DNA from: a virus
Lineage: Duplodnaviria > Caudoviricetes
DNA length: 52,651 nt
Virus record (IMG/VR): IMGVR_UViG_3300025508_000025
Span: 1-52,651 of that record
Strand: one strand, 5' to 3'
In this document: positions 19,418 through 43,712 of the stretch, piece after piece
Numbering within the stretch: the first letter of the stretch is position 1
How the letters are laid out: every line of letters begins with the position of its first letter
Program-made: the position numbers and the translations under genes
Notes under the pieces: model-generated
Told to the model about the DNA's origin: nothing
The model's database searches: none
What the model saw: only the letters and a program-made list of their open reading frames with translations

Positions 19418-22400
19418 ATGGCTGTATTTGATTTACCAAATGGCGAAAAATTAAATGTTCCTGATCAATATCTAGGCGATGTTGATATGGCATCTAATAT
19501 TAAAGATGTCTATGGTATTGATATTAATGAAGTTGCTTATGATCTAGATTGGTTAGCAGACAAACCTAAGTCAATAGCTAGAGGAGCTGTAGGATTAGCA
19601 GCAGATGTACCTTTAGGTTTAGCTGGTTTATTTGATATAGGAGATGATAGTGCTGCTGTTAAAGGTCTACAAGGATTTAAAGATTATTTAAGAGAAGATT
19701 CTGCATTAGCCTCTGATCCAAAATATAGAAATACATATGGTACAAAACTTGCAGAAGGTGCAGGTTCTTTTATTCCGTTTCTAGGAGCTGGTTTAGCAGG
19801 TAGAGCTTTAGCATCAAGAGGAGTTATTAGTCCAATGGCAGGAGCTTACGGAGTTCCAGCAGCATTAGCTGTGCCTACAGGTATGGCTCAACAAGTTGAT
19901 CGTTTGCAAATGGCTAGAGAAATGGGTGAAGATGTTGGAGCTGTATCTGAAACATTTGCTACTCTAACTGGTGGTCTTATAGGTTTAACAGAAATTGCAC
20001 CTATAGCAAATTTAATGAAAAAAATTCCTAAGTCTGCTCTTAGAAACAAAGAAACAAAAGATGCTATTCTTACTAAATTAAAATCTGCTGCACAGTCTGG
20101 TGCACTTGAAGGTGGTCAAGAAGTTCTTGCAAGTGTTTTACAAGACTTAACTGCTCGTGGTCTATACAGTGATGAGTTGCCTATAGGAGAAAGTTTATTT
20201 GATGAATTTACTATTGGTGGCATTATTGGTGGTACTGCTGACTTAGTTTTAAATAGTCTTGGACCAAAAAGAAATCAAGGTAATGCTTATCTTAGAGATA
20301 GAGAAGCTAGAGCTAGAAAAAATAAAGTTAATCTACAAGAGTCAGGTAAGTTTGAAAGAGCTATAGATCAAGGAGAAGTAACCGAATATCAACAACCTAC
20401 AGTCGTAGCTAAACCAGATATACCTGTTCCACCTATTGAAGGCTTAGAACCTCAACTAGAAATTACACGATTACCTGATGGAACATTTGCTGTTATAGAT
20501 ACTCAAGCTATTGACAGTCCTGTACTTGCAACAGCACCCACAGAAACAGAAGCAATAGTTCTTAAAGACAAACAGTTTACTCAGTTTGAAAGAGATAAAT
20601 TAAAATCTAGATTAGACAATGATTTATACAGCATGGGTTTAAGTGAAAGCTCAACTGCACAAGAAATAGGAGCAACAATTCTTGATCCTAATTCAGCAGA
20701 ATTAGATTTGCAAACTTTACTTAACTTTGATACTACATTTAAAGGTCCAAAGAAAAAAGCAAGACTTGATTCCACTAAAGCTCCAGATGATGTAATTAAA
20801 CACATAGAAAATCAAGGTTTAGATTTTAAGTCTACTTATTCTATGAATGAAGCAAAGTTATTTTTAAACAAAAAAGATTTTAATTCTTTAGCTTCTGATA
20901 TGGCACAAGTTGTATTTCAACAATCAGAAAAAGCAGGTATGCCTTCTATTCGTGCAGATAAAAAACAATTAGATACTTCTATTGGAGCAATAAAAGCATT
21001 AGCTAAATCTAAAAATATAGAGTTAGACGATGGAGGAATAGCGACTCCATTTATGAGATTTAATTCAATGACTACAGGAACTCCTATGTACAGACATATG
21101 AGCAAAGGACAAAAAGAATTACTTTTAGCTAAAATACATTCATTACCTGCATTTAATAATTTAACTCCTTTACCTGATTTTTCAATACGAGAATACACAG
21201 CAAAAGATATGGCTGATTTTGTAGCTGGTGTAGGACAAGCAGAGTTTGATGGCAATGATGTAAGAACATATTTAAAAGAAAGATTTAAAGATAGAACTCC
21301 AAAATATCATCCTTACTCTGATGGTAAATTTGATGACTTAATAATGAATGAACAGCTTGATACTTTTCTTCGTGATTTAAAAACAAGTGGCAGAGTTGAA
21401 TCTGTAGGAGAAAAAATAAGTACAAAAAAATATCCTTTTCCAGTATTAAGAATTAAACCTAACTTTGAGTTTGATATTGCAAGAAGAGCAGAAGGATTTA
21501 ATGAAACTCCTGAAGAGTTTGGAGCTAGGCTTACTCAAGAAAATAAATTACCACAAGAAACTATTGACCAGTTAATAGAATCTGAAAAAGTAAAACAACA
21601 AAAAGTTTTACCTCCGAAAGAAATAGAACCTAAAATAATAAACTTCCAAGAAGTTATAGAAGAAGGTCGTACTAATAAGTTTGCAAAAGAAATTCAAAAA
21701 AAATTAAAACAAGCTGGGTTATCAGAAGTTGGAGTTGTTGTTAGCAATGACATACTCTCTACAGAAACTTTAGTTGCAGGACAAAAAGGGGAAATCGTGT
21801 TTGACCCCACACAAACTAGAGCACAACAAACTAAAGGTCAGTATGACGAAAATACTGATACTATCTTTTTATCTTTAAACGCTGTTAATCCTGAAGGCAC
21901 AGCATCAGATATAGAAATCCAAGAACAACTTAATAGAATTATAGATGGTCAAATCATTCATGCATTTCGTGCTAAAGATTTAATCACTGAGCAAGAATAC
22001 AATTATCTTAAAAAAGAAGTTAAGCGTAGAAAAGTTCCGCAAGGTTTTGATGAAAACTTTAAAGGCAAAACTTTTTATGATAGAAGTAAAACACTTAACA
22101 ACGACAAAGCTCAATCACTTACAGCAGAAGGCAAAGGTGTTGATGCTATAGATGAGCTATACATAGAAAGTGCTGTAGCAGAAATGTATAAGGCAAGAAA
22201 CATTAAGCCTGATATACCACCTAAAGCTCAAGGCATTTTTGATAAGTTCTTAAACTTCTTTAAAAGCATGGGCACGGCTATGCGTTCTTCTGGTTATAAA
22301 AAATCTTCAGATATATTTAATGATATTGAAGCTGGAAAGATTGGTTCAAGAGAAAGAGATCAGATTAGAACTTTTAGAGAGTTAGATAGATTGCCTATTG

Positions 22401-25400
22401 CAGCAGAGACTGCTCCTATATTTGAAGTAGATGATGTTCAGGAAAAAGAAACAATTGAATTTACTGAAGAGGAAGCTAAAGAATTTAATATTTCTAATAC
22501 AGTATTTGTAGAAACAGAAACAGGTGCATTTGTTTCAGCTCCATATAATCCAATTAAAGGAAGAATTCTTGCTCCACCAAAAGTACAAAAAGGTAAAAGA
22601 ACAACTACAGCTAAAGATAGAAATAAAATTTATAACAAATATAAACTTACTGAAGAAGAATATCTAGAAGATGCTGAAGCTATTCTAGATAATATTAAAA
22701 ATAAAAATTTACTTGGTGCAATGGAATGGTATATAGAAAATGCTCCTAGTCAAGATTATAAATTAATAGCTACTAGAGTTTTAAAACAATTAAAAAAATT
22801 AAAATCAGCCAATATAGATTTTGATATTGTTATTTTTGATGATGCATATCTTCAACAACCTGCATCGGGATGGTTAGCAGAAGATATTAAAGAATTAAAA
22901 GCTCGTAAAAATAACTTGAATGGACAATCAATCGCACCTGGAAATGCAGGTAGAAGAAATGGATTAATATATTTAAATAATGTAGATGGAGCAAGAGGAA
23001 ATGGTGTAAATTTTGATACTTTTTTACATGAAGCAATTCATGCAGTAACACAAAGTACAGTTTTTATAGCTAATAATCCAGATGCTTTTTATTACCAAGA
23101 TATTACTCTTACTCAAAAAAGTATGGAGCAAATTAAAAGATTAGAGAATTTGCGAAAAAGAATTAAAAAAGAAATTAATCAAGAAAAACAAAGTGGCAAA
23201 TGGAGTGAAAGAAGTTATCAAGAACAATTTAGAATCAATTATTCAACAAAAAATATAAATGAACTTTTGTCTATGGGTTTAACTGATAGATATACTCAAG
23301 AGTTTTTTGAAAATATTAAATATACTCCTAAAGGAACAAACACTTTATGGGATGTTTTTGTAGATAGTATTAGAAAAATATTAGATATTCCTGCTAAAAA
23401 AGGTACAGCTCTTTCTGCATTTTTAAAAGAAGCAGATCAAATTCTTGATTTAAATCCTGAAGATATTAAAGCTACTCAAAAAATGCTTAGTAAATATCAA
23501 GATCAAAATGCTAAAGATAATCAAATAAATGCACCACCTATAGAAACGCAAAGAGAAAGTATTAATAATCAAATAAAAAAATTACAACAACGACTTGATC
23601 CATTACAAGCAACTATGAATCAAGAGTATGCTGTAATGAGCAATGCTAATAACTTAAAACTTAGTAGACAAATACAAGAAATAGAACAAGAAATAACAGC
23701 ATTGCAAGAACAATTAAAAAATCTTTCTCCAGAACAAACATCTTTTGTATTTGAGCAAGGCATTCGATCTCAAGACCCAAGCATATCATTACAAAAAGCT
23801 GTAGAGTCAGCAGAAGAATTAACCAAAAAAACTCCTAGAGGTGATATACCTCCTTATAATTTAAATGCTTCTGATGTTGCACTAGAAGCTGCTCAAGAAT
23901 TTATTGCAGACCCTACAGCTCGTATGCCTAAGATGCCTGTTAATGAGTCAGCAGTGCCAGAAGAGTTTAAAGAACGAGCTGAGAAAACTGGTTATCAAAG
24001 AGATGAAAGAACAGCAGGAGAAAGATTTATAGATGTTGCTGCTGATCCTATTACAAGTGTTAAAAAATTCTTTGCCAATACAAGACAAACTTATATTGAT
24101 AGTTTAGATAAACTTGATAAAAAGATAATTGAAGGCATTGAAACCAACGAAGAAGTAAGACTTGCAAATAACTTAGTATCAACTAGCACTATGGCTGCTT
24201 TAAGATTAGCAGATAGAGCAAGAGGTGTATTTGCACAGATGCTAACAAGAGGTGTGCCTGTTGATAAAATAGATGGCGTTGATGCTTTAACTTCAGTGCA
24301 AGAGTTTGAGTTTTCTGCTAGATACAATCCTTTTGTAGATGGCAATACAGGTAAAGGAGGTCTTGTACAATTTACTGCACCTTTATATTCAGACCCTACA
24401 ATAGATAAAGAATATGTATTTGGTTTATATGCTGGTTTAAAAAGAGTTAAAAGTCTTAATGAGAATGGCGTAGAGGTTGATGTTCCATCAAGTTTAAGAG
24501 ACCTAGAACTTATTGAACAAATAGAAAATAATTACAAAGATGTTGTAGAGGTCTACAACAATTATCAGCAATGGAATAATGGATTAATTAGTTTTGCAGA
24601 AGCTAAAGGTATTTTAAGCCAAGAACAATCTCAGTTATGGAGAACTCATTCTGCATACTATCCTTTCTATAGAAACATGGTAGATGATACTGAAATGAGT
24701 GCACCTGCGGTTGGTGGTGGTTCATTACCAAGCAATCCTCTTTCAATTAAAATGAAAGGTTCTGAAAAAGAACTCAATGTGCCTCCATTAGAAGCTATAG
24801 CAAGAAACTCTTTGTCTATATTAACTGCATCTATGAAGAATGATGGCGTTGCTAAATTAGTTAGAGACTTAGAAACAATGGGCGATGCCAAAGAAATTAG
24901 TCCAAGTCAAACACCAGGATTAGATACAATTTTTGTATTTGAAAATGGTGTAAAGAAACACATCTTATTAAAAGACCCAGAAACATTTCTTGCTTTGCAA
25001 TCTGTAGGTGGAGTTAAAACAGATATGTTAACTAAAATATTTGCTGTACCAGCAGGAATATTAAGAGACACAGTTACTCGTGATCCTGGATTTGTTGTTG
25101 TTAATATATTAAGAGATACACTATCTTCTGCTGTTACATCAGGAGTTAAGCTAGGTATAGATGCAGACAGCTATACACCTATTATAGATTCAGTTAAGAA
25201 TATGTTTGGTGATATGACTGATCTAGAAAAGTTTGGAATTATAGGTGGTTATGATTTTGCCAACGATGAAGGTGACATTGTTAGCTTTATGGCAAGAACA
25301 AGAAGGCAACAAGGACTATCATCAGAAAACGGAATTACTCCAGAAAGTGCATTTTATAAACTATGGGATGGATTGGGTGGACTAACCACTAAATCAGATG

Positions 25401-26683
25401 GTGCAACTCGTAAAGCAGTTTATGACTCAGTATATAAAAGTGCATTAAAAGATGGTGCAACAGAAGCGGAAGCTCAATCAGCAGCAGCATATCAAGCATT
25501 AGAAATAATAAACTTTGGTCGCAGAGGACTATCACCTACATTCAAGCTAGTGACTTCTGCAATACCATTCTTGAACGCAAGAATACAGGGTCTTGATGTC
25601 TTGTATAGATCGTTTAGTGGTAAATATTCTGCTACAGAGAAACTGCAAGAAGGCGAAACAATGGAAGAACTCAAAAGCAGAATTGTAAAGACGGCTTTGC
25701 AAAGAGGTCTGGGCTTGATGGGTGTCACCATAATGTATTATTTACTGGTCAGTGATACCGATGATTACAAAGAAGCCAAGCGAGAAACAAGAGATGATAA
25801 TTGGTTAATACCTACGCCTTGGGATTACACAGTTAAGATACCTATACCTTTTGAAGTAGGCATGATGTTTAAGGCTTTACCTGAAAGGATTGTTGATATG
25901 GCATGGGGTCAAGTAGAAAAAGACCCTCTGAAATCTATGGCAAGACAGCTAGGAACTTCTGCAAAAATTCCAGTCTTTAGTGGAGACATTAGTGTTCAGG
26001 CTGTTAAACCATTGTTTGAAGCTATCACTAACAGAAACTCTTTCACAGGCACTGAGATTGTTCCTTACTACAAGTTAGGCTTAGAAGCAGGGTATCAAGC
26101 TAATCCCCAAACAAATGAACTGGCAAGGCTTATAGGTGAACAGCTAGGCATATCTCCAATGAAGATAGAGTATGTGCTTAAAGGCTACACAGGAACGCTA
26201 GGTGGCTATGCTTTAAGTGTCATAGACTCTATGGTCAGAACTGCTACAGGCAGTCCTTACATCCCTAACAATGCATTTAATAATCCAACGAACTGGGCAC
26301 AACTACCAGTCTTTAAAAGACTTCTTGTAGATTCTAATCAGATGGGAGGATTGCAACAGCAGTTTTATGAACTAAGAGGGGAAGTTAATAAGGTCACACA
26401 GACCATGAACAGTCTCAAGAAACAAAAAAGATTTGATGAACTGGCAACTTATAGAGCCAACAATCAAGGAACTATGAATGTTAAAAATCAAGTCCGATCA
26501 ATGGAAAGATACTTAGATAATTACAGAAAGAAAAGAGATGCAATCATGCGTAGAGAAGATGTTTCTGTTTCAGTCAAACAAGGATTGCTTGAAGATTTAG
26601 TTTTAGAAAGAGATAAGAGATTAGCTTTTGTACCTGAGTTAAGAAAGAAAGCCAATGTTCCCATCTTTACAGGAAACCTGTAG
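19418..26683 (+). CDS. Large polyvalent ejection protein (zincin-like HExxH, LPD38-like C-terminus)
   Basis: 2421 aa; TFLHEAIHAVT; C-terminal IPFLNARIQG, KIPIPFEVG, SPMKIEYVLKGYTG. Confidence 0.7.
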   Translation: MAVFDLPNGEKLNVPDQYLGDVDMASNIKDVYGIDINEVAYDLDWLADKPKSIARGAVGLAADVPLGLAGLFDIGDDSAAVKGLQGFKDYLREDSALASDPKYRNTYGTKLAEGAGSFIPFLGAGLAGRALASRGVISPMAGAYGVPAALAVPTGMAQQVDRLQMAREMGEDVGAVSETFATLTGGLIGLTEIAPIANLMKKIPKSALRNKETKDAILTKLKSAAQSGALEGGQEVLASVLQDLTARGLYSDELPIGESLFDEFTIGGIIGGTADLVLNSLGPKRNQGNAYLRDREARARKNKVNLQESGKFERAIDQGEVTEYQQPTVVAKPDIPVPPIEGLEPQLEITRLPDGTFAVIDTQAIDSPVLATAPTETEAIVLKDKQFTQFERDKLKSRLDNDLYSMGLSESSTAQEIGATILDPNSAELDLQTLLNFDTTFKGPKKKARLDSTKAPDDVIKHIENQGLDFKSTYSMNEAKLFLNKKDFNSLASDMAQVVFQQSEKAGMPSIRADKKQLDTSIGAIKALAKSKNIELDDGGIATPFMRFNSMTTGTPMYRHMSKGQKELLLAKIHSLPAFNNLTPLPDFSIREYTAKDMADFVAGVGQAEFDGNDVRTYLKERFKDRTPKYHPYSDGKFDDLIMNEQLDTFLRDLKTSGRVESVGEKISTKKYPFPVLRIKPNFEFDIARRAEGFNETPEEFGARLTQENKLPQETIDQLIESEKVKQQKVLPPKEIEPKIINFQEVIEEGRTNKFAKEIQKKLKQAGLSEVGVVVSNDILSTETLVAGQKGEIVFDPTQTRAQQTKGQYDENTDTIFLSLNAVNPEGTASDIEIQEQLNRIIDGQIIHAFRAKDLITEQEYNYLKKEVKRRKVPQGFDENFKGKTFYDRSKTLNNDKAQSLTAEGKGVDAIDELYIESAVAEMYKARNIKPDIPPKAQGIFDKFLNFFKSMGTAMRSSGYKKSSDIFNDIEAGKIGSRERDQIRTFRELDRLPIAAETAPIFEVDDVQEKETIEFTEEEAKEFNISNTVFVETETGAFVSAPYNPIKGRILAPPKVQKGKRTTTAKDRNKIYNKYKLTEEEYLEDAEAILDNIKNKNLLGAMEWYIENAPSQDYKLIATRVLKQLKKLKSANIDFDIVIFDDAYLQQPASGWLAEDIKELKARKNNLNGQSIAPGNAGRRNGLIYLNNVDGARGNGVNFDTFLHEAIHAVTQSTVFIANNPDAFYYQDITLTQKSMEQIKRLENLRKRIKKEINQEKQSGKWSERSYQEQFRINYSTKNINELLSMGLTDRYTQEFFENIKYTPKGTNTLWDVFVDSIRKILDIPAKKGTALSAFLKEADQILDLNPEDIKATQKMLSKYQDQNAKDNQINAPPIETQRESINNQIKKLQQRLDPLQATMNQEYAVMSNANNLKLSRQIQEIEQEITALQEQLKNLSPEQTSFVFEQGIRSQDPSISLQKAVESAEELTKKTPRGDIPPYNLNASDVALEAAQEFIADPTARMPKMPVNESAVPEEFKERAEKTGYQRDERTAGERFIDVAADPITSVKKFFANTRQTYIDSLDKLDKKIIEGIETNEEVRLANNLVSTSTMAALRLADRARGVFAQMLTRGVPVDKIDGVDALTSVQEFEFSARYNPFVDGNTGKGGLVQFTAPLYSDPTIDKEYVFGLYAGLKRVKSLNENGVEVDVPSSLRDLELIEQIENNYKDVVEVYNNYQQWNNGLISFAEAKGILSQEQSQLWRTHSAYYPFYRNMVDDTEMSAPAVGGGSLPSNPLSIKMKGSEKELNVPPLEAIARNSLSILTASMKNDGVAKLVRDLETMGDAKEISPSQTPGLDTIFVFENGVKKHILLKDPETFLALQSVGGVKTDMLTKIFAVPAGILRDTVTRDPGFVVVNILRDTLSSAVTSGVKLGIDADSYTPIIDSVKNMFGDMTDLEKFGIIGGYDFANDEGDIVSFMARTRRQQGLSSENGITPESAFYKLWDGLGGLTTKSDGATRKAVYDSVYKSALKDGATEAEAQSAAAYQALEIINFGRRGLSPTFKLVTSAIPFLNARIQGLDVLYRSFSGKYSATEKLQEGETMEELKSRIVKTALQRGLGLMGVTIMYYLLVSDTDDYKEAKRETRDDNWLIPTPWDYTVKIPIPFEVGMMFKALPERIVDMAWGQVEKDPLKSMARQLGTSAKIPVFSGDISVQAVKPLFEAITNRNSFTGTEIVPYYKLGLEAGYQANPQTNELARLIGEQLGISPMKIEYVLKGYTGTLGGYALSVIDSMVRTATGSPYIPNNAFNNPTNWAQLPVFKRLLVDSNQMGGLQQQFYELRGEVNKVTQTMNSLKKQKRFDELATYRANNQGTMNVKNQVRSMERYLDNYRKKRDAIMRREDVSVSVKQGLLEDLVLERDKRLAFVPELRKKANVPIFTGNL

Positions 26684-37092: not shown

Positions 37093-37451
37093 GATTGCAC
37101 CTCGTGATTCACAGTCAAAGTTATCAGATACTTTTTATCCTGAATATCTTTACATAGATTTATTACATCTAGATTTGTATAAAGACTCTCTCGCATAGCA
37201 AAAGAATCTAAAAACAAATCAGACTCATTCCTAGCAAAATAAATAGCATTGAGTATTAAACTCAATACATCCACCTCACTCATTGATTTATCTTTTGGAA
37301 CACCATTAGGATATTTCAAAAAACATGAGACTAACATCCAATCAGCCTTGCTCATGATATTTGGCAAATCTCCTATAGGAGTTTTACCTTTCATATCAAT
37401 CCCATATTTGCTTCCCATTTCTGAAAAGACTTTATCTCGTTCTTTATTCAT
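37089..37451 (-). CDS. Hypothetical early protein
   Basis: GGAGGT SD. Confidence 0.6.
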   Translation of the reverse strand: MNKERDKVFSEMGSKYGIDMKGKTPIGDLPNIMSKADWMLVSCFLKYPNGVPKDKSMSEVDVLSLILNAIYFARNESDLFLDSFAMRESLYTNLDVINLCKDIQDKKYLITLTVNHEVQS

Positions 37452-37484
37452 AATTTACCTCCAAGTAATATTTGAATAGTTAAG

Positions 37485-37540
37485 TTTCTGTTTCGACCTT
37501 TTAGGTCTCATCAGGGAAAAAACACATTTTCCGACAGAAA
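37485..37540 (-). ncRNA. Hammerhead ribozyme HH1 (type III, canonical)
   Basis: UUUCUG-UC^GGAAAA-ugugUU-UUUUCC-CUGAUGA-GACC-uaaaa-GGUC-GAAA-CAGAAA; GUC cut 37533/37532. Confidence 0.93.
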
Positions 37541-39071: not shown

Positions 39072-40053
39072 GCTTTTTTCCTCCAAAGGCTTTTCCAAGA
39101 AAACCACCTTTAAGAGAATCAGCAGACTCTTCCAACTTCTTAGCTAAGTCTTTTCGCTTCTGTTCAGCTAAAGCATCATCTTCTCTCAGAGAGTCAATGC
39201 CATTGTTGTATCCATTAAACGTAGAAACAACGCTAACCAGTTTTTGATGAGCATCAGCAATATCTTGATCGTTACCTAAAATATCAGCGTTGATATTTGG
39301 TAAAGACCCAGTTAATTTTTCCAGTGCTTTAAAACTGGAAGCATTAAAGAAACCTTTTTGTTTCTGCTTGGGGTCATATTCCCTCAATTTTTTTGCTAAA
39401 TGATCAGTCTGTTCAAGGACAGCATCAACAGTGGTTTTAAGAACATTCTTAATATTATTGTTGATTCTATTCTTGACATCATTTTCTATCTTAGACCTTA
39501 ACTTCTCTGATACATTCAAACGAATGTCAGAGCCATATTGAGGAACAGTAGATATCTCAAATTCAAACTTAAACTTTCGTCTAAGTGAATCGAAGTCAGG
39601 GTAATCACATTCGTTGAATGCTTTACCTAAATTTCTTTTGGCTTGTTCCATTTTTTGTGGATAGCTTTTAAGAAACTCATCTACTTCTTTATCCCAAATC
39701 TGCTTTGCATCATCCACTTGATTCTGCAATGACTCTAACTGTGAGTTAGGGCATAAACGCCACCCACTCACAACCTTGTCATCCATATCAGTAGAATTAT
39801 CTGCCCAAGGCAAAGTCATCGGATAGTAATAATCATTCCTAAACTTATTTAAAATGTGGCGAAAATATTTGTTAATATCTTCTCCATAAATATGCTTAGA
39901 AACACCCAGTAATCTCTCGCTAGATACTTCAGTATCTATCGCTAAATCACGCTTTAACCTTTTATCTGTTCTGATTCCGCTAGGATGCTTCGCAGTCATG
40001 CGAACCAACACAGCATTCTCAGACAGAGTATTAGTCAATTTTTCTTTATCCAT
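39064..40053 (-). CDS. DUF3150-like protein
   Basis: TLPW...GWRL, DYP...LRRKFKF; lies between AAA and vWA genes; start MDKEK. Confidence 0.55.
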   Translation of the reverse strand: MDKEKLTNTLSENAVLVRMTAKHPSGIRTDKRLKRDLAIDTEVSSERLLGVSKHIYGEDINKYFRHILNKFRNDYYYPMTLPWADNSTDMDDKVVSGWRLCPNSQLESLQNQVDDAKQIWDKEVDEFLKSYPQKMEQAKRNLGKAFNECDYPDFDSLRRKFKFEFEISTVPQYGSDIRLNVSEKLRSKIENDVKNRINNNIKNVLKTTVDAVLEQTDHLAKKLREYDPKQKQKGFFNASSFKALEKLTGSLPNINADILGNDQDIADAHQKLVSVVSTFNGYNNGIDSLREDDALAEQKRKDLAKKLEESADSLKGGFLGKAFGGKKHD

Positions 40054-40083
40054 AATAAGAACCTCCATTCTTTATTAGAAAAT

Positions 40084-40138
40084 TGCTGTTTCGATCTTAA
40101 TGATCTCTTCAGGTGAGAAAAAAAATCTCACGACAGCA
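40084..40138 (-). ncRNA. Hammerhead ribozyme HH2 (type III, canonical)
   Basis: UGCUG-UC^GUGAGA-U7-UCUCAC-CUGAAGA-GAUC-auuaa-GAUC-GAAA-CAGCA; GUC cut 40132/40131. Confidence 0.93.
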
Positions 40139-41310: not shown

Positions 41311-41372
41311 ACCAATACTGGATAACAATTTGCTATCCAGTTTCATAGCATTTCAGCTAATCTTCAGTTGGT
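41311..41372 (-). ncRNA. Hammerhead ribozyme HH3 (type I, U10.1-U11.1 variant)
   Basis: ACCAA-CUGAAGA-UUAGC-ugaaau-GCUAU-GAAA-CUGGAUAGC-aaauu-GUUAUCCAG-UA^UUGGU; cut 41316/41315. Confidence 0.85.
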
Positions 41373-41714: not shown

Positions 41715-41743
41715 AATTTTTGACCCTCCAAGGTCAGTTAATT

Positions 41744-41804
41744 ACCAATAACAGACAGCACTCGCTATCTGTTTTCATAGCATCTCAGCTAATCTTCAGT
41801 TGGC
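41744..41804 (-). ncRNA. Hammerhead ribozyme HH4 (type I, U10.1-U11.1 variant)
   Basis: GCCAA-CUGAAGA-UUAGC-ugagau-GCUAU-GAAA-ACAGAUAGC-gagu-GCUGUCUGU-UA^UUGGU; cut 41749/41748; stem III covaries with HH3. Confidence 0.85.
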
Positions 41805-42059: not shown

Positions 42060-42090
42060 AATTTTTGACCCTCCAAGGTCATGTTTAATT

Positions 42091-42176
42091 ACCAAGATTC
42101 CCTCGAAAGGGTCAGGGCATTACTGCTACCTGTTTTAAAATTTCGACTGGATTCTCGCCAGTCATCATCAGTTGGT
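42091..42176 (-). ncRNA. Hammerhead ribozyme HH5 (type I, branched stem III)
   Basis: ACCAA-CUGAUGA-u-GACUGG-cgagaau-CCAGUC-GAAA-UU-[two hairpins]-AA-UC^UUGGU; cut 42096/42095. Confidence 0.75.
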
Positions 42177-42593
42177 TTACCCTGTATTTTTTATAGGGTC
42201 ATCAAGGAAAACATCTCCATGCACAGAACGAATAACATAATTAAGATTTTCGTTTATCGTTATTTGTCTATCGTTAATGAATAAGATTTGATTTCCCTTG
42301 ATCTGTTTAAGATAAACAGAATCAGATGCAAAAACATAGGAAAAAATAGCGTTTAATCTCTCCCTTGTTGTGACTGTATCCCACCCACACATTGAAAAAC
42401 ATAAGTGAATATTGTTACTTAAATTTTCGCTAGGATGATTGTTCTCGAACCATGCAATTTTATTGTCATGCAAGAAAACCCCTTGCTGTTTTTTGCTCGA
42501 CCATTCTGATATTGGTCGAATTCTAGTATTGCCCATTATTTTATTTACATTTTCAGTAAATGCTTCAGCAATTTCTTTTGATACTTTTCTCAT
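42177..42593 (-). CDS. Hypothetical protein, first gene of early operon
   Basis: GGAGGT SD; LHDNKIA, GWDTVTTRERLNA motif. Confidence 0.65.
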   Translation of the reverse strand: MRKVSKEIAEAFTENVNKIMGNTRIRPISEWSSKKQQGVFLHDNKIAWFENNHPSENLSNNIHLCFSMCGWDTVTTRERLNAIFSYVFASDSVYLKQIKGNQILFINDRQITINENLNYVIRSVHGDVFLDDPIKNTG

Positions 42594-42613
42594 AAGTTAA
42601 ACCTCCAAGGTTT

Positions 42614-42665
42614 TGTTTCTTGAACCCCAAAATAGGATTCTCTTCAGCCTGTTAATTCAGGGACA
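42614..42665 (-). ncRNA. Hammerhead ribozyme HH6 (type III, variant)
   Basis: UG-UC^CCUG-aauuaa-CAGG-CUGAAGA-GAAUCCUA-uuu-UGGGGUUC-aa-GAAA-CA; AA insertion before GAAA; cut 42662/42661. Confidence 0.6.
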
Positions 42666-42911
42666 GTTGGAGGACTGCCTAGGACATACTGCAGTAGCAA
42701 GTATCGGTGTATCGTGAACGCCTAAGTAGTTTCCATTTCACTACATCTCAGGGAACGCTTTTTGTTTTGATGCTTCTCTTTATCATCGAGGGTAAATCTA
42801 GAGACCCTCAGCTAAGTTAGTATCTTAATAAGTAATACAGCTACCTAGCAGTCATATATGGCTGTTCTATAAAGACCTCCTTTTTGGTTTAATATTCGTT
42901 GTCATGTGCAT

Positions 42912-42941
42912 ACCTTAACACCATGAATATCATCAATGCAA
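42912..42941 (-). promoter_or_regulatory. Sigma70-like early promoter
   Basis: TTGCAT-18 bp-TAAGGT with extended -10 TG. Confidence 0.55.
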
Positions 42942-43005
42942 CATCTTATTAGATTGCAGTATGTGAGCATTACGAAACTCTGCTTACTGGTAGATAATAT
43001 TAAGC

Positions 43006-43503
43006 ATGGATAAAGACAAAACTCAGGACGAAAAACCCACGCTTAAATTGGTCAAGGATAAGACCAAGCTAACCATGAAACAGAGAGCCTTTTGTGATCT
43101 CATCATCAAGGGCAAGTTGGGAAGTCAGATCGAATGCTATATGGAAGTCTATGATGTAGCTCTAACCAAGACAGGGAAGATACCTAAACACGCCCACGTT
43201 GATTGCAGTAGGTTAATGGCAAACCCTAGTATCAGCCTAACTATAGCTAATGGATTGAAACGCTTAGAGGTTAATGCAGTAGCTTCCACTACTCGAACAA
43301 GGAGTTACGTTCTTGAACAGCTTATGAGAGAGAGCAAGGAAGCAGACAGTGACAGCACTAGAGTCAGGGCATTAGAGTTACTAGGCAAGACAGTGAACCT
43401 ATTCAGCGACACCTTGGAGATCAAGGAGAGCAGAACCAGTGATGACATAGAGAGTGAGATTGAGCAGAAGATAGAAGCATTGTTGAGAGAATCAGCAGAA
43501 TAG
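43006..43503 (+). CDS. terS: Terminase small subunit
   Basis: LTMKQRAFC, RVRALELLGK...LF; upstream of terL. Confidence 0.75.
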   Translation: MDKDKTQDEKPTLKLVKDKTKLTMKQRAFCDLIIKGKLGSQIECYMEVYDVALTKTGKIPKHAHVDCSRLMANPSISLTIANGLKRLEVNAVASTTRTRSYVLEQLMRESKEADSDSTRVRALELLGKTVNLFSDTLEIKESRTSDDIESEIEQKIEALLRESAE

Positions 43504-43712
43504 ACCCCCCTTTTAATGCTGTGATCTAGAGCAGAGACAGACCCCCCTACACCCCTTTACAGATGCAAGTACCTGCTATCATATATACATAGTGTTTTGC
43601 ACATAATATGACATAATTTTATAGACCCCCCCTATTATGTATTGCATTTTGCTATCTTTCTTTGCCATATACCCTGTTTTTCTAGGTAAACACTGTGTTT
43701 CATACCCCCCCC
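43502..43712. repeat. Four A(G/T)AC6-8 C-tract repeats
   Basis: At 43502, 43539, 43623 and 43702. Confidence 0.6.

Follow-up and report, generated by a model that had tools for sequence, protein, structure and literature searches.

Hammerhead ribozymes have been described flanking single genes of prophages, where a part in the processing of long transcripts has been suggested, and the main text of the same study names several departures from the consensus core (A6C, A6a, U13a, U15.1-A16.1, U10.1-U11.1 and 2a/2b), a number of which are slow (Perreault et al. 2011, PMC3088659, in the parts considered here). In one variant from a saltern phage, the cleavage site lies at most 3 nucleotides from a mapped 5' transcript end, according to the same passages. 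The role of many phage hammerheads has been open since their discovery, and a 2019 review likewise holds that the purpose of bacterial ribozymes needs more work and that most genomic catalytic RNAs are functional orphans. Here we describe a hammerhead-type element, HH6, in the IMG/VR virus record IMGVR_UViG_3300025508_000025, all 52,651 bases of which are referred to below as the window. HH6 (42602-42673, minus strand) occupies the leader of gene 42593, the first gene of a leftward operon. It belongs to a lineage of type III hammerheads that carry two extra adenosines in the core (the AA lineage), and its stem III is built in part with the ribosome-binding site of the gene that follows.

Hammerhead positions are numbered in the conventional way, with CUGANGA and GAAA as the consensus core boxes. 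The Rfam consensus and section 8 of Perreault et al. 2011 are consistent with this usage. Read in the direction of transcription, HH6 opens with the strand CCUCCAA (42667-42673), which is followed at 42662-42666 by a mismatched C16.4, the 5' strand of proximal stem III (UGU, 42665-42663) and C17. Cleavage is predicted between 42662 and 42661. The stem I hairpin (42648-42661) pairs CCUG (42661-42658) with CAGG (42651-42648) around the loop AAUUAA, the core box CUGAAGA, C3 to A9, occupies 42641-42647, and the stem II hairpin (42622-42640) pairs GAAUCC (42640-42635) with GGGUUC (42627-42622) around the loop UAUUUUG. The two extra adenosines (42620-42621) stand between C11.1 of stem II and G12. 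They are followed by a segment (42614-42619) that holds the core GAAA (42619-42616) and, in A42616-C42615-A42614, the 3' strand of proximal stem III. Last comes the ribosome-binding site UUGGAGG (42602-42608) of the gene, whose ATG is at 42593; it provides the 3' strand of distal stem III. The sequence-only reading of this locus had proposed that CCUCCAA is the exact complement of UUGGAGG and lengthens an otherwise 3-bp stem III across a small internal loop. The letters bear this out, with every named element in its place; beyond the three proximal pairs lie a 1x5 internal loop (C42666 opposite AAACC, 42613-42609) and a 7-bp distal helix. The minimum-energy fold (116 nt) contains this 7-bp helix and both hairpins. 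Two local hairpins compete with this arrangement. AAACC-UUGGA-GGUUU (42599-42613) holds part of the ribosome-binding site, and GGCAGU (42679-42674) paired with ACUGUC (42667-42662) hides the cleavage site at 42662-42679 and leaves CCUCC in its loop.

Homologues of the 138-aa protein encoded by gene 42593 were found in 7 viral and 59 metagenome contigs. Inspection of 200 nt of upstream sequence at every homologous gene showed a hammerhead immediately in front of it in 46 of the 59 metagenome loci. Assigned to types by eye, these 46 comprise 26 elements with the AA (2 of them cut by the contig end), 9 canonical type III hammerheads (1 partial) and 11 of type I. The remaining 13 loci include one with only 17 nt upstream of the gene and 12, the most distant homologues, without a hammerhead there. 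AA-type and canonical hammerheads occupy the same gene-flanking positions and alternate between relatives. The canonical type III copy in locus L004, which matches Rfam Hammerhead_3 with 31.6 bits (E 0.0041), has the same loop I as the window.

A single architecture fits all 23 distinct AA-type leaders. In a MAFFT alignment of 22 distinct leaders, the 14 pairs of stems I-III are formed in 305 of 305 cells and compensatory changes are present at 6 of them. The covariation score of 0.374 was reached by none of 500 shuffles, and slid controls stayed at or below 0.081. The comparison was then widened to 114 matches of a covariance model, 81 of them distinct. Their alignment was fitted to the model and so leans towards the structure; here 97.8% of 1134 cells are paired and 9 of the 14 pairs show compensatory changes. 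Among these 81 distinct rows, stem II has compensatory changes at 3 of its 6 pairs, stem I is paired in 100% of cells, and the U16.1-A15.1 pair is found in every row (81/81). The three-way junction of hammerhead type that had been proposed for the first-gene leader, open at stem III, is thus backed by covariation in stems I-III.

The AA lineage extends well beyond this gene. The covariance model R1, built from the 23 AA-type elements, finds more AA-type copies before other genes in the same loci, with 46 distinct modules there, and about 19 different genes, counted as distinct N-termini, lie downstream of AA-type modules. A strict search pattern consisting of loop I, the core box and CAAGAAA matches at least 115 IMG/VR stretches. 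Across 166 fetched loci, the distinct AA-type modules number 132. By itself, HH6 is statistically unremarkable. The folding z-score is -0.29 (116 nt), with 72 of 200 shuffles folding equally well or better, and -0.68 for the 346-nt leader. Rfam at its gathering score gave no hammerhead match at HH6, and weak Rfam matches nearby (CRISPR-DR7 and RMST_1) were set aside as chance. An unremarkable single-sequence z-score without an Rfam match is what would be expected if a loose motif and a 7-nt complement had come together by accident in an AT-rich intergenic region. However, the comparative data, in the form of conservation and covariation, make HH6 more than a chance resemblance. Such an accident is refuted by the covariation in 22 and 81 distinct sequences, by the recurrence in at least 115 IMG/VR stretches and by the canonical hammerheads at the homologous spot, and we consider it exceedingly improbable.

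Conservation within the core bears on whether these RNAs cleave. At position 17, where the search pattern allows any base, 131 of the 132 modules have C, one has U and none has G. Box position 7 is A in 57, U in 52, C in 10, G in 1 and AU in 12 of the 132, the other box letters and loop I being fixed by the pattern. Among the 23 leaders that were aligned freely, both core boxes and the AA show no change apart from the variable position, which is A, G or U, and an additional U next to it in 3 leaders. The stems around this core have diverged; stem I occurs in 13 different Watson-Crick versions, and stem III as GUGU/ACAU, UAGU/ACUA, CAGU/ACUG, GAGU/ACUC, GUAU/AUAC and others. A retained C17, variation only at position 7 and invariance of the other core letters form the pattern that a working hammerhead would be expected to show. 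The CUGAAUGA form (12 modules) may correspond to the A6a variant of Perreault et al. 2011.

The inserted adenosines themselves are present in 23 of 23 homologous leaders. An insertion-agnostic descriptor, with room for 0-3 extra nucleotides between stem II and G12, found AA 111 times, no insertion 25 times and another insertion 4 times across all loci. The corresponding counts are 40, 11 and 1 in the loci fetched by protein, which are unbiased for the AA, and the scan returned neither a single-A form nor a form with another dinucleotide. The sequence-only reading had called the AA non-canonical and doubted the activity of HH6 on that ground. The AA does break a core strand; the doubt is not specific to HH6, since the insertion is invariant across the lineage. 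Judged by its distribution, the AA is a hallmark of the lineage and not a mark of decay.

A constant hallmark would also fit a new, non-catalytic function, in which a catalytically disabled descendant of a hammerhead persists as a structured leader that binds protein, represses translation or stabilises the transcript. The AA interrupts a core strand that is normally continuous, the Rfam model rejects HH6, and the core insertions tested in the part of Perreault et al. 2011 considered here cut activity, all of which would agree with a disabled element. However, a dead ribozyme would have no evident reason to keep C17 and the other core letters, and it would not be expected to share gene-flanking positions with canonical hammerheads and to alternate with them between relatives. 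We therefore regard a disabled descendant as improbable, and self-cleavage of the AA-type element as fairly likely on the pattern of core conservation.

Two kinds of canonical type III copy in these loci have features of their own. In one, located at the homologous spot (L004 1192-1249, L019, L021, L022, L025, L031, L032, L034 and L041), the loops AAUUAA and UUAAUU are perfectly complementary, which suggests a six-pair kissing contact between loops I and II, and stem II carries a two-nucleotide bulge. In the AA lineage loop I is conserved and loop II varies without a clear match to it. Pairing of the AA or of the conserved loop I with loop II or with the region before the start codon was also considered and rejected, as there is no consistent complementarity among the 23 leaders. 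In the other kind (L078, L096, L102, L154, L181, L090 and L128), the canonical type III hammerhead lies directly behind a G/C-rich hairpin followed by at least 6 U, an order that looks like an intrinsic terminator and then a ribozyme.

The pairing of stem III with the ribosome-binding site, which had been noticed in the window copy, is a common layout in the lineage. In 105 of 132 modules, the 12 nt on the 5' side of stem III contain CUCC or CCUC, and in 72 of 132 they contain the full CCUCC. A masking duplex, defined as at most -6 kcal/mol between those 12 nt and the ribosome-binding site, is found in 108 of 131 modules where shuffled 12-mers would give 47.9 (mean energy -9.2 vs -5.6 kcal/mol), the modules being mutually related and hence not independent. 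Proximal stem III has 2-5 bp in 124 of 132 copies and at most 4 bp in 90 of 132. The complementary strand accompanies all 36 modules in which this stem has 2-3 bp, and the 27 modules without the strand all have a proximal stem of at least 4 bp. The ribosome-binding site of L021 and L002 begins 4 nt past A15.1 and is in effect stem III itself. Because short proximal stems always come with the strand, and because of the layout in L021 and L002, the comparison argues that the ribosome-site helix is a structural part of the ribozyme.

A different arrangement is seen in about 16 AA-type modules that end in AUAAGA, GUUAGA or GUAAGA before stem III and have no strand complementary to the ribosome-binding site. 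Their stem III 3' strand overlaps the 5' arm of a ribosome-site hairpin (CUAAC...GUUAG), so that folding of the ribozyme would expose the ribosome-binding site and not hide it.

The hairpins that compete with the hammerhead fold are conserved as well. The hairpin over the cleavage site, which had been predicted as an alternative fold for the window, is present there as GGCAGU/ACUGUC and recurs in relatives with matched changes, as GGACAGU/ACUGUCU and as GACAC(A)/(U)GUGUC. It forms in the minimum-energy fold of the 346-nt leader and in the modelled 5' product of the cut. The local hairpin at the ribosome-binding site covaries too (AUAAAACU/GGUUUUAU, CAUACU/GGUAUG, AGACCU/GGGUCU, GCUAU/GUAGC and, in the window, AAACC/GGUUU). 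It forms in the modelled 3' product and so would persist after cleavage. The complementary strand has another partner in many relatives, where it pairs with a ribosome-site look-alike located upstream (UUGGAG/CUCCAA or AGGAGGGA/UCCCUCCU), and this hairpin covaries; in L061 it has become GGGGGG/CCCCCC, so that the hairpin is kept and the complementarity to the ribosome-binding site is lost.

Many AA-type modules start with the conserved sequence UUUUGAAACCUUGGRGACAGU (for example L004 820-846, L005 1030-1057, L022, L023, L025, L026, L031, L033 and L037). The ribosome-site look-alike within it can pair with the complementary strand, and the sequence resembles the 3' end of another hammerhead-plus-ribosome-site module.

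The sequence-only reading went further and proposed that cleavage releases the masking strand and turns translation on. In its strong form, self-cleavage would be the rate-limiting, irreversible on-switch for gene 42593, and the AA might tune its rate, which would make it a timer of early expression. The release step fares well, since the modelled net affinity of the 5' tail for the mRNA after the cut is only -3.3 kcal/mol at 37 °C (-2.4 kcal/mol at 20 °C), which makes parting of the two strands plausible. In a 110-nt construct of the window copy, most of the ensemble at 37 °C contains the masking helix (p = 0.70); its p is 0.57-1.0 in 15 of the 16 leaders that make up subgroups 1-2 and 0.00 in the remaining one, L037. 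Averaged over the family, the modelled probability that GGAG is unpaired rises on cutting from 0.44 to 0.68 at 37 °C and from 0.51 to 0.64 at 20 °C. At 37 °C, accessibility of the ribosome-binding site rises by more than 0.2 on cutting in 46 of the 103 modules that have CUCC, and in none does it fall by as much. A switch of this kind would also have parallels, since the layout mirrors engineered hammerhead and twister constructs that sequester a ribosome-binding site and function in Escherichia coli (described in the part of PMC5052635 considered here), and in some fungal RNA viruses translation requires the self-cleavage of a 5'-UTR (untranslated region) hammerhead, according to PMC13725137.

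However, the unmasking modelled for the window copy is modest, from 0.41 to 0.55 at 37 °C and from 0.51 to 0.54 at 20 °C, and the ribosome-binding site remains partly within its conserved local hairpin after the cut. The masking helix has a probability of 0.04 at 15 °C and is absent from the minimum-energy fold of the 346-nt leader. Its probability is 0 in relatives with a strong upstream hairpin, and L061, with CCCCCC/GGGGGG, has no ribosome-site complementarity left to mask with. The evidence thus speaks less well for a decisive translational gate, which we consider unlikely.

Our preferred interpretation, to which we give about an even chance of being right as a whole, is that HH6 is a type III hammerhead of the AA lineage, closed by a clamp, likely self-cleaving and only modestly masking. 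With a proximal stem III of 3 bp, the ribozyme would recruit the ribosome-binding site, which is nearly invariant, to serve as the far strand in a clamp of 7 bp, and this clamp would close the three-way junction. In uncut RNA that adopts the hammerhead fold, the ribosome-binding site would be partly masked. If the transcript starts upstream of 42673, as we infer, it would most likely be cut after C42662, leaving an mRNA for gene 42593 with a 5'-OH and the stem I hairpin at its start. The strands would then refold locally and part, the 5' tail as GGCAGU/ACUGUC and the mRNA as AAACC/GGUUU. The masking would be mainly a by-product of ribozyme closure, delaying translation modestly and transiently at most.

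Several observations weigh against this interpretation of HH6 as a clamp-closed, cleaving hammerhead. The strand from 11.1 into G12 is interrupted in HH6, and even when 801 nt were searched at E<=10, Rfam Hammerhead_3 left the element unmatched. No insertion between 11.1 and 12 is named in the main text of Perreault et al. 2011 (PMC3088659), and the other core insertions covered there lowered activity. A masking duplex is lacking in 23 of the 131 AA-type modules. The duplex measure also flags 16 of 26 canonical type III copies and is therefore unspecific, for which reason it was dropped as a marker of AA-type versus canonical elements; in the flagged canonical copies, a hairpin upstream supplies the C-rich strand as its 3' arm, in many cases with a U run behind it. 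Masking of this kind is impossible for the type I hammerheads that occupy the same position. The flanks of the distal helix beyond CUCC:GGAG are conserved (A:U in 88 of 101, C:G in 71 of 104) and double changes there are isolated cases, so that this helix has no independent proof from covariation. Finally, a scan of both strands for a sigma-70-like promoter between 42400 and 43100 found none.

A broader proposal is that AA-type hammerheads are widespread conditional phage ribozymes in which ribosome binding, folding and self-cleavage depend on one another, forming a natural timer-like gate that would set the order and level of early expression for each cistron. In this proposal stem III is closed by the ribosome-binding site of the following gene, and either the look-alike upstream or the hairpin over the cleavage site would compete for that strand. 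We put this forward tentatively, as a possibility that is probably not correct.

HH6 is the first, in operon order, of six hammerheads on the minus strand between 37485 and 42673, one in each intergenic gap of the leftward operon, which spans 37.4-42.7 kb and begins at 42593. The element at 37485-37540 (37487-37537) is a canonical type III hammerhead that scores 47.5 bits with Rfam Hammerhead_3, under the cut-off of 48.5, and it is the only one of the six that Rfam reports. A second canonical type III copy (40085-40136) was found with R1 (E 0.011). Three elements read by eye as type I, and unscored, each lie directly after a stop codon (41311-41372, 41744-41804 and 42091-42176). The HH6 leader precedes the first gene (42177-42593, minus strand), whose 138-aa product belongs to phrog_554, of unknown function. 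Six RNA runs, in the form of assembled contigs, contain parts of the window. Four of them (X15, X16, X17 and X19) were placed along it, and one contig of a relative covers 42611-42628; such an assembly lacks molecule ends and is neutral on cleavage.

The ribosome-binding sites behind the hammerheads lie in short hairpins (42599-42613, 42060-42080, 41715-41735, 40055-40072 and 37450-37468, minus strand). The stem of such a hairpin has at least 5 bp at 5 of 6 starts that follow a hammerhead vs 8 of 26 other gene starts scanned. At one of these sites the open reading frame (ORF) start at 40068 is probably wrong, and GGAGG at 40065-40061 followed by ATG at 40053 is likelier (40051-40068, minus strand). 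Between HH6 and the rightward genes lies a divergent intergenic region of about 330 nt (42674-43005), and in the group-2 relatives about 100 nt of sequence preceding the element are conserved and apparently non-coding.

The virus record is about 89% complete. The rightward packaging and structural module includes the small terminase subunit (43006), the large terminase subunit (44077) and the portal protein (45583), as well as a single ORF of 2421 aa (19418-26683, plus strand). Only the large terminase subunit matched an entry of the named-phage collection, with 55% identity to that of Pelagibacter phage HTVC027P, and the phage that carries HH6 is of marine type and related to Pelagibacter phages. 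Searches of the same collection with blastn (42100-43600) and with tblastn (the 138-aa protein) returned no matches.

In open-licence PubMed Central and bioRxiv texts, we found no natural bacterial or phage hammerhead that pairs with a ribosome-binding site, and no hammerhead with an insertion between 11.1 and G12. The AA lineage is thus apparently an undescribed, large variant of the hammerhead. It offers a concrete hypothesis for phage hammerheads, in which closure by the ribosome-binding site of the next gene would couple cutting and translation. The standard Rfam model misses most such RNAs, as it reports one of the six in this operon and passes over a core variant that occurs at least 115 times in IMG/VR. 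If active, the AA form would widen the known sequence space of the hammerhead core and provide a natural counterpart to synthetic ribozyme switches that mask a ribosome-binding site.

Compared with described systems, HH6 resembles the type III hammerhead (RF00008) in being open at stem III and in having CUGANGA and GAAA boxes, the A15.1-U16.1 pair and C17. It departs from RF00008 in the AA between C11.1 and G12, a 4-bp stem I, the conserved AAUUAA loop and a short proximal stem III. As in the prophage clusters described in the part of PMC3088659 considered here, hammerheads of mixed topology lie between the genes of the window operon; that text makes no mention of pairing with a ribosome-binding site, as predicted for the window copy, and the term "Shine-Dalgarno" occurs 0 times in it. 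The engineered switches of Wieland and Hartig 2008, as cited in passages of Felletti et al. 2016 (PMC5052635), share with HH6 a 5' leader position and a ribozyme stem in which the ribosome-binding site pairs with its complement, and in them cleavage frees the site. They are artificial and experimentally validated, whereas HH6 is a natural, predicted element with conserved competing hairpins and modest modelled unmasking. The hammerheads in the 5'-UTRs of fungal RNA viruses (Lopez-Galiano et al. 2026, PMC13725137) are likewise leader ribozymes, and there cleavage is tied to translation initiation. They differ from HH6 in that they are of type I, occur in RNA viruses of eukaryotes in a cap-independent setting, and do not pair with a ribosome-binding site.

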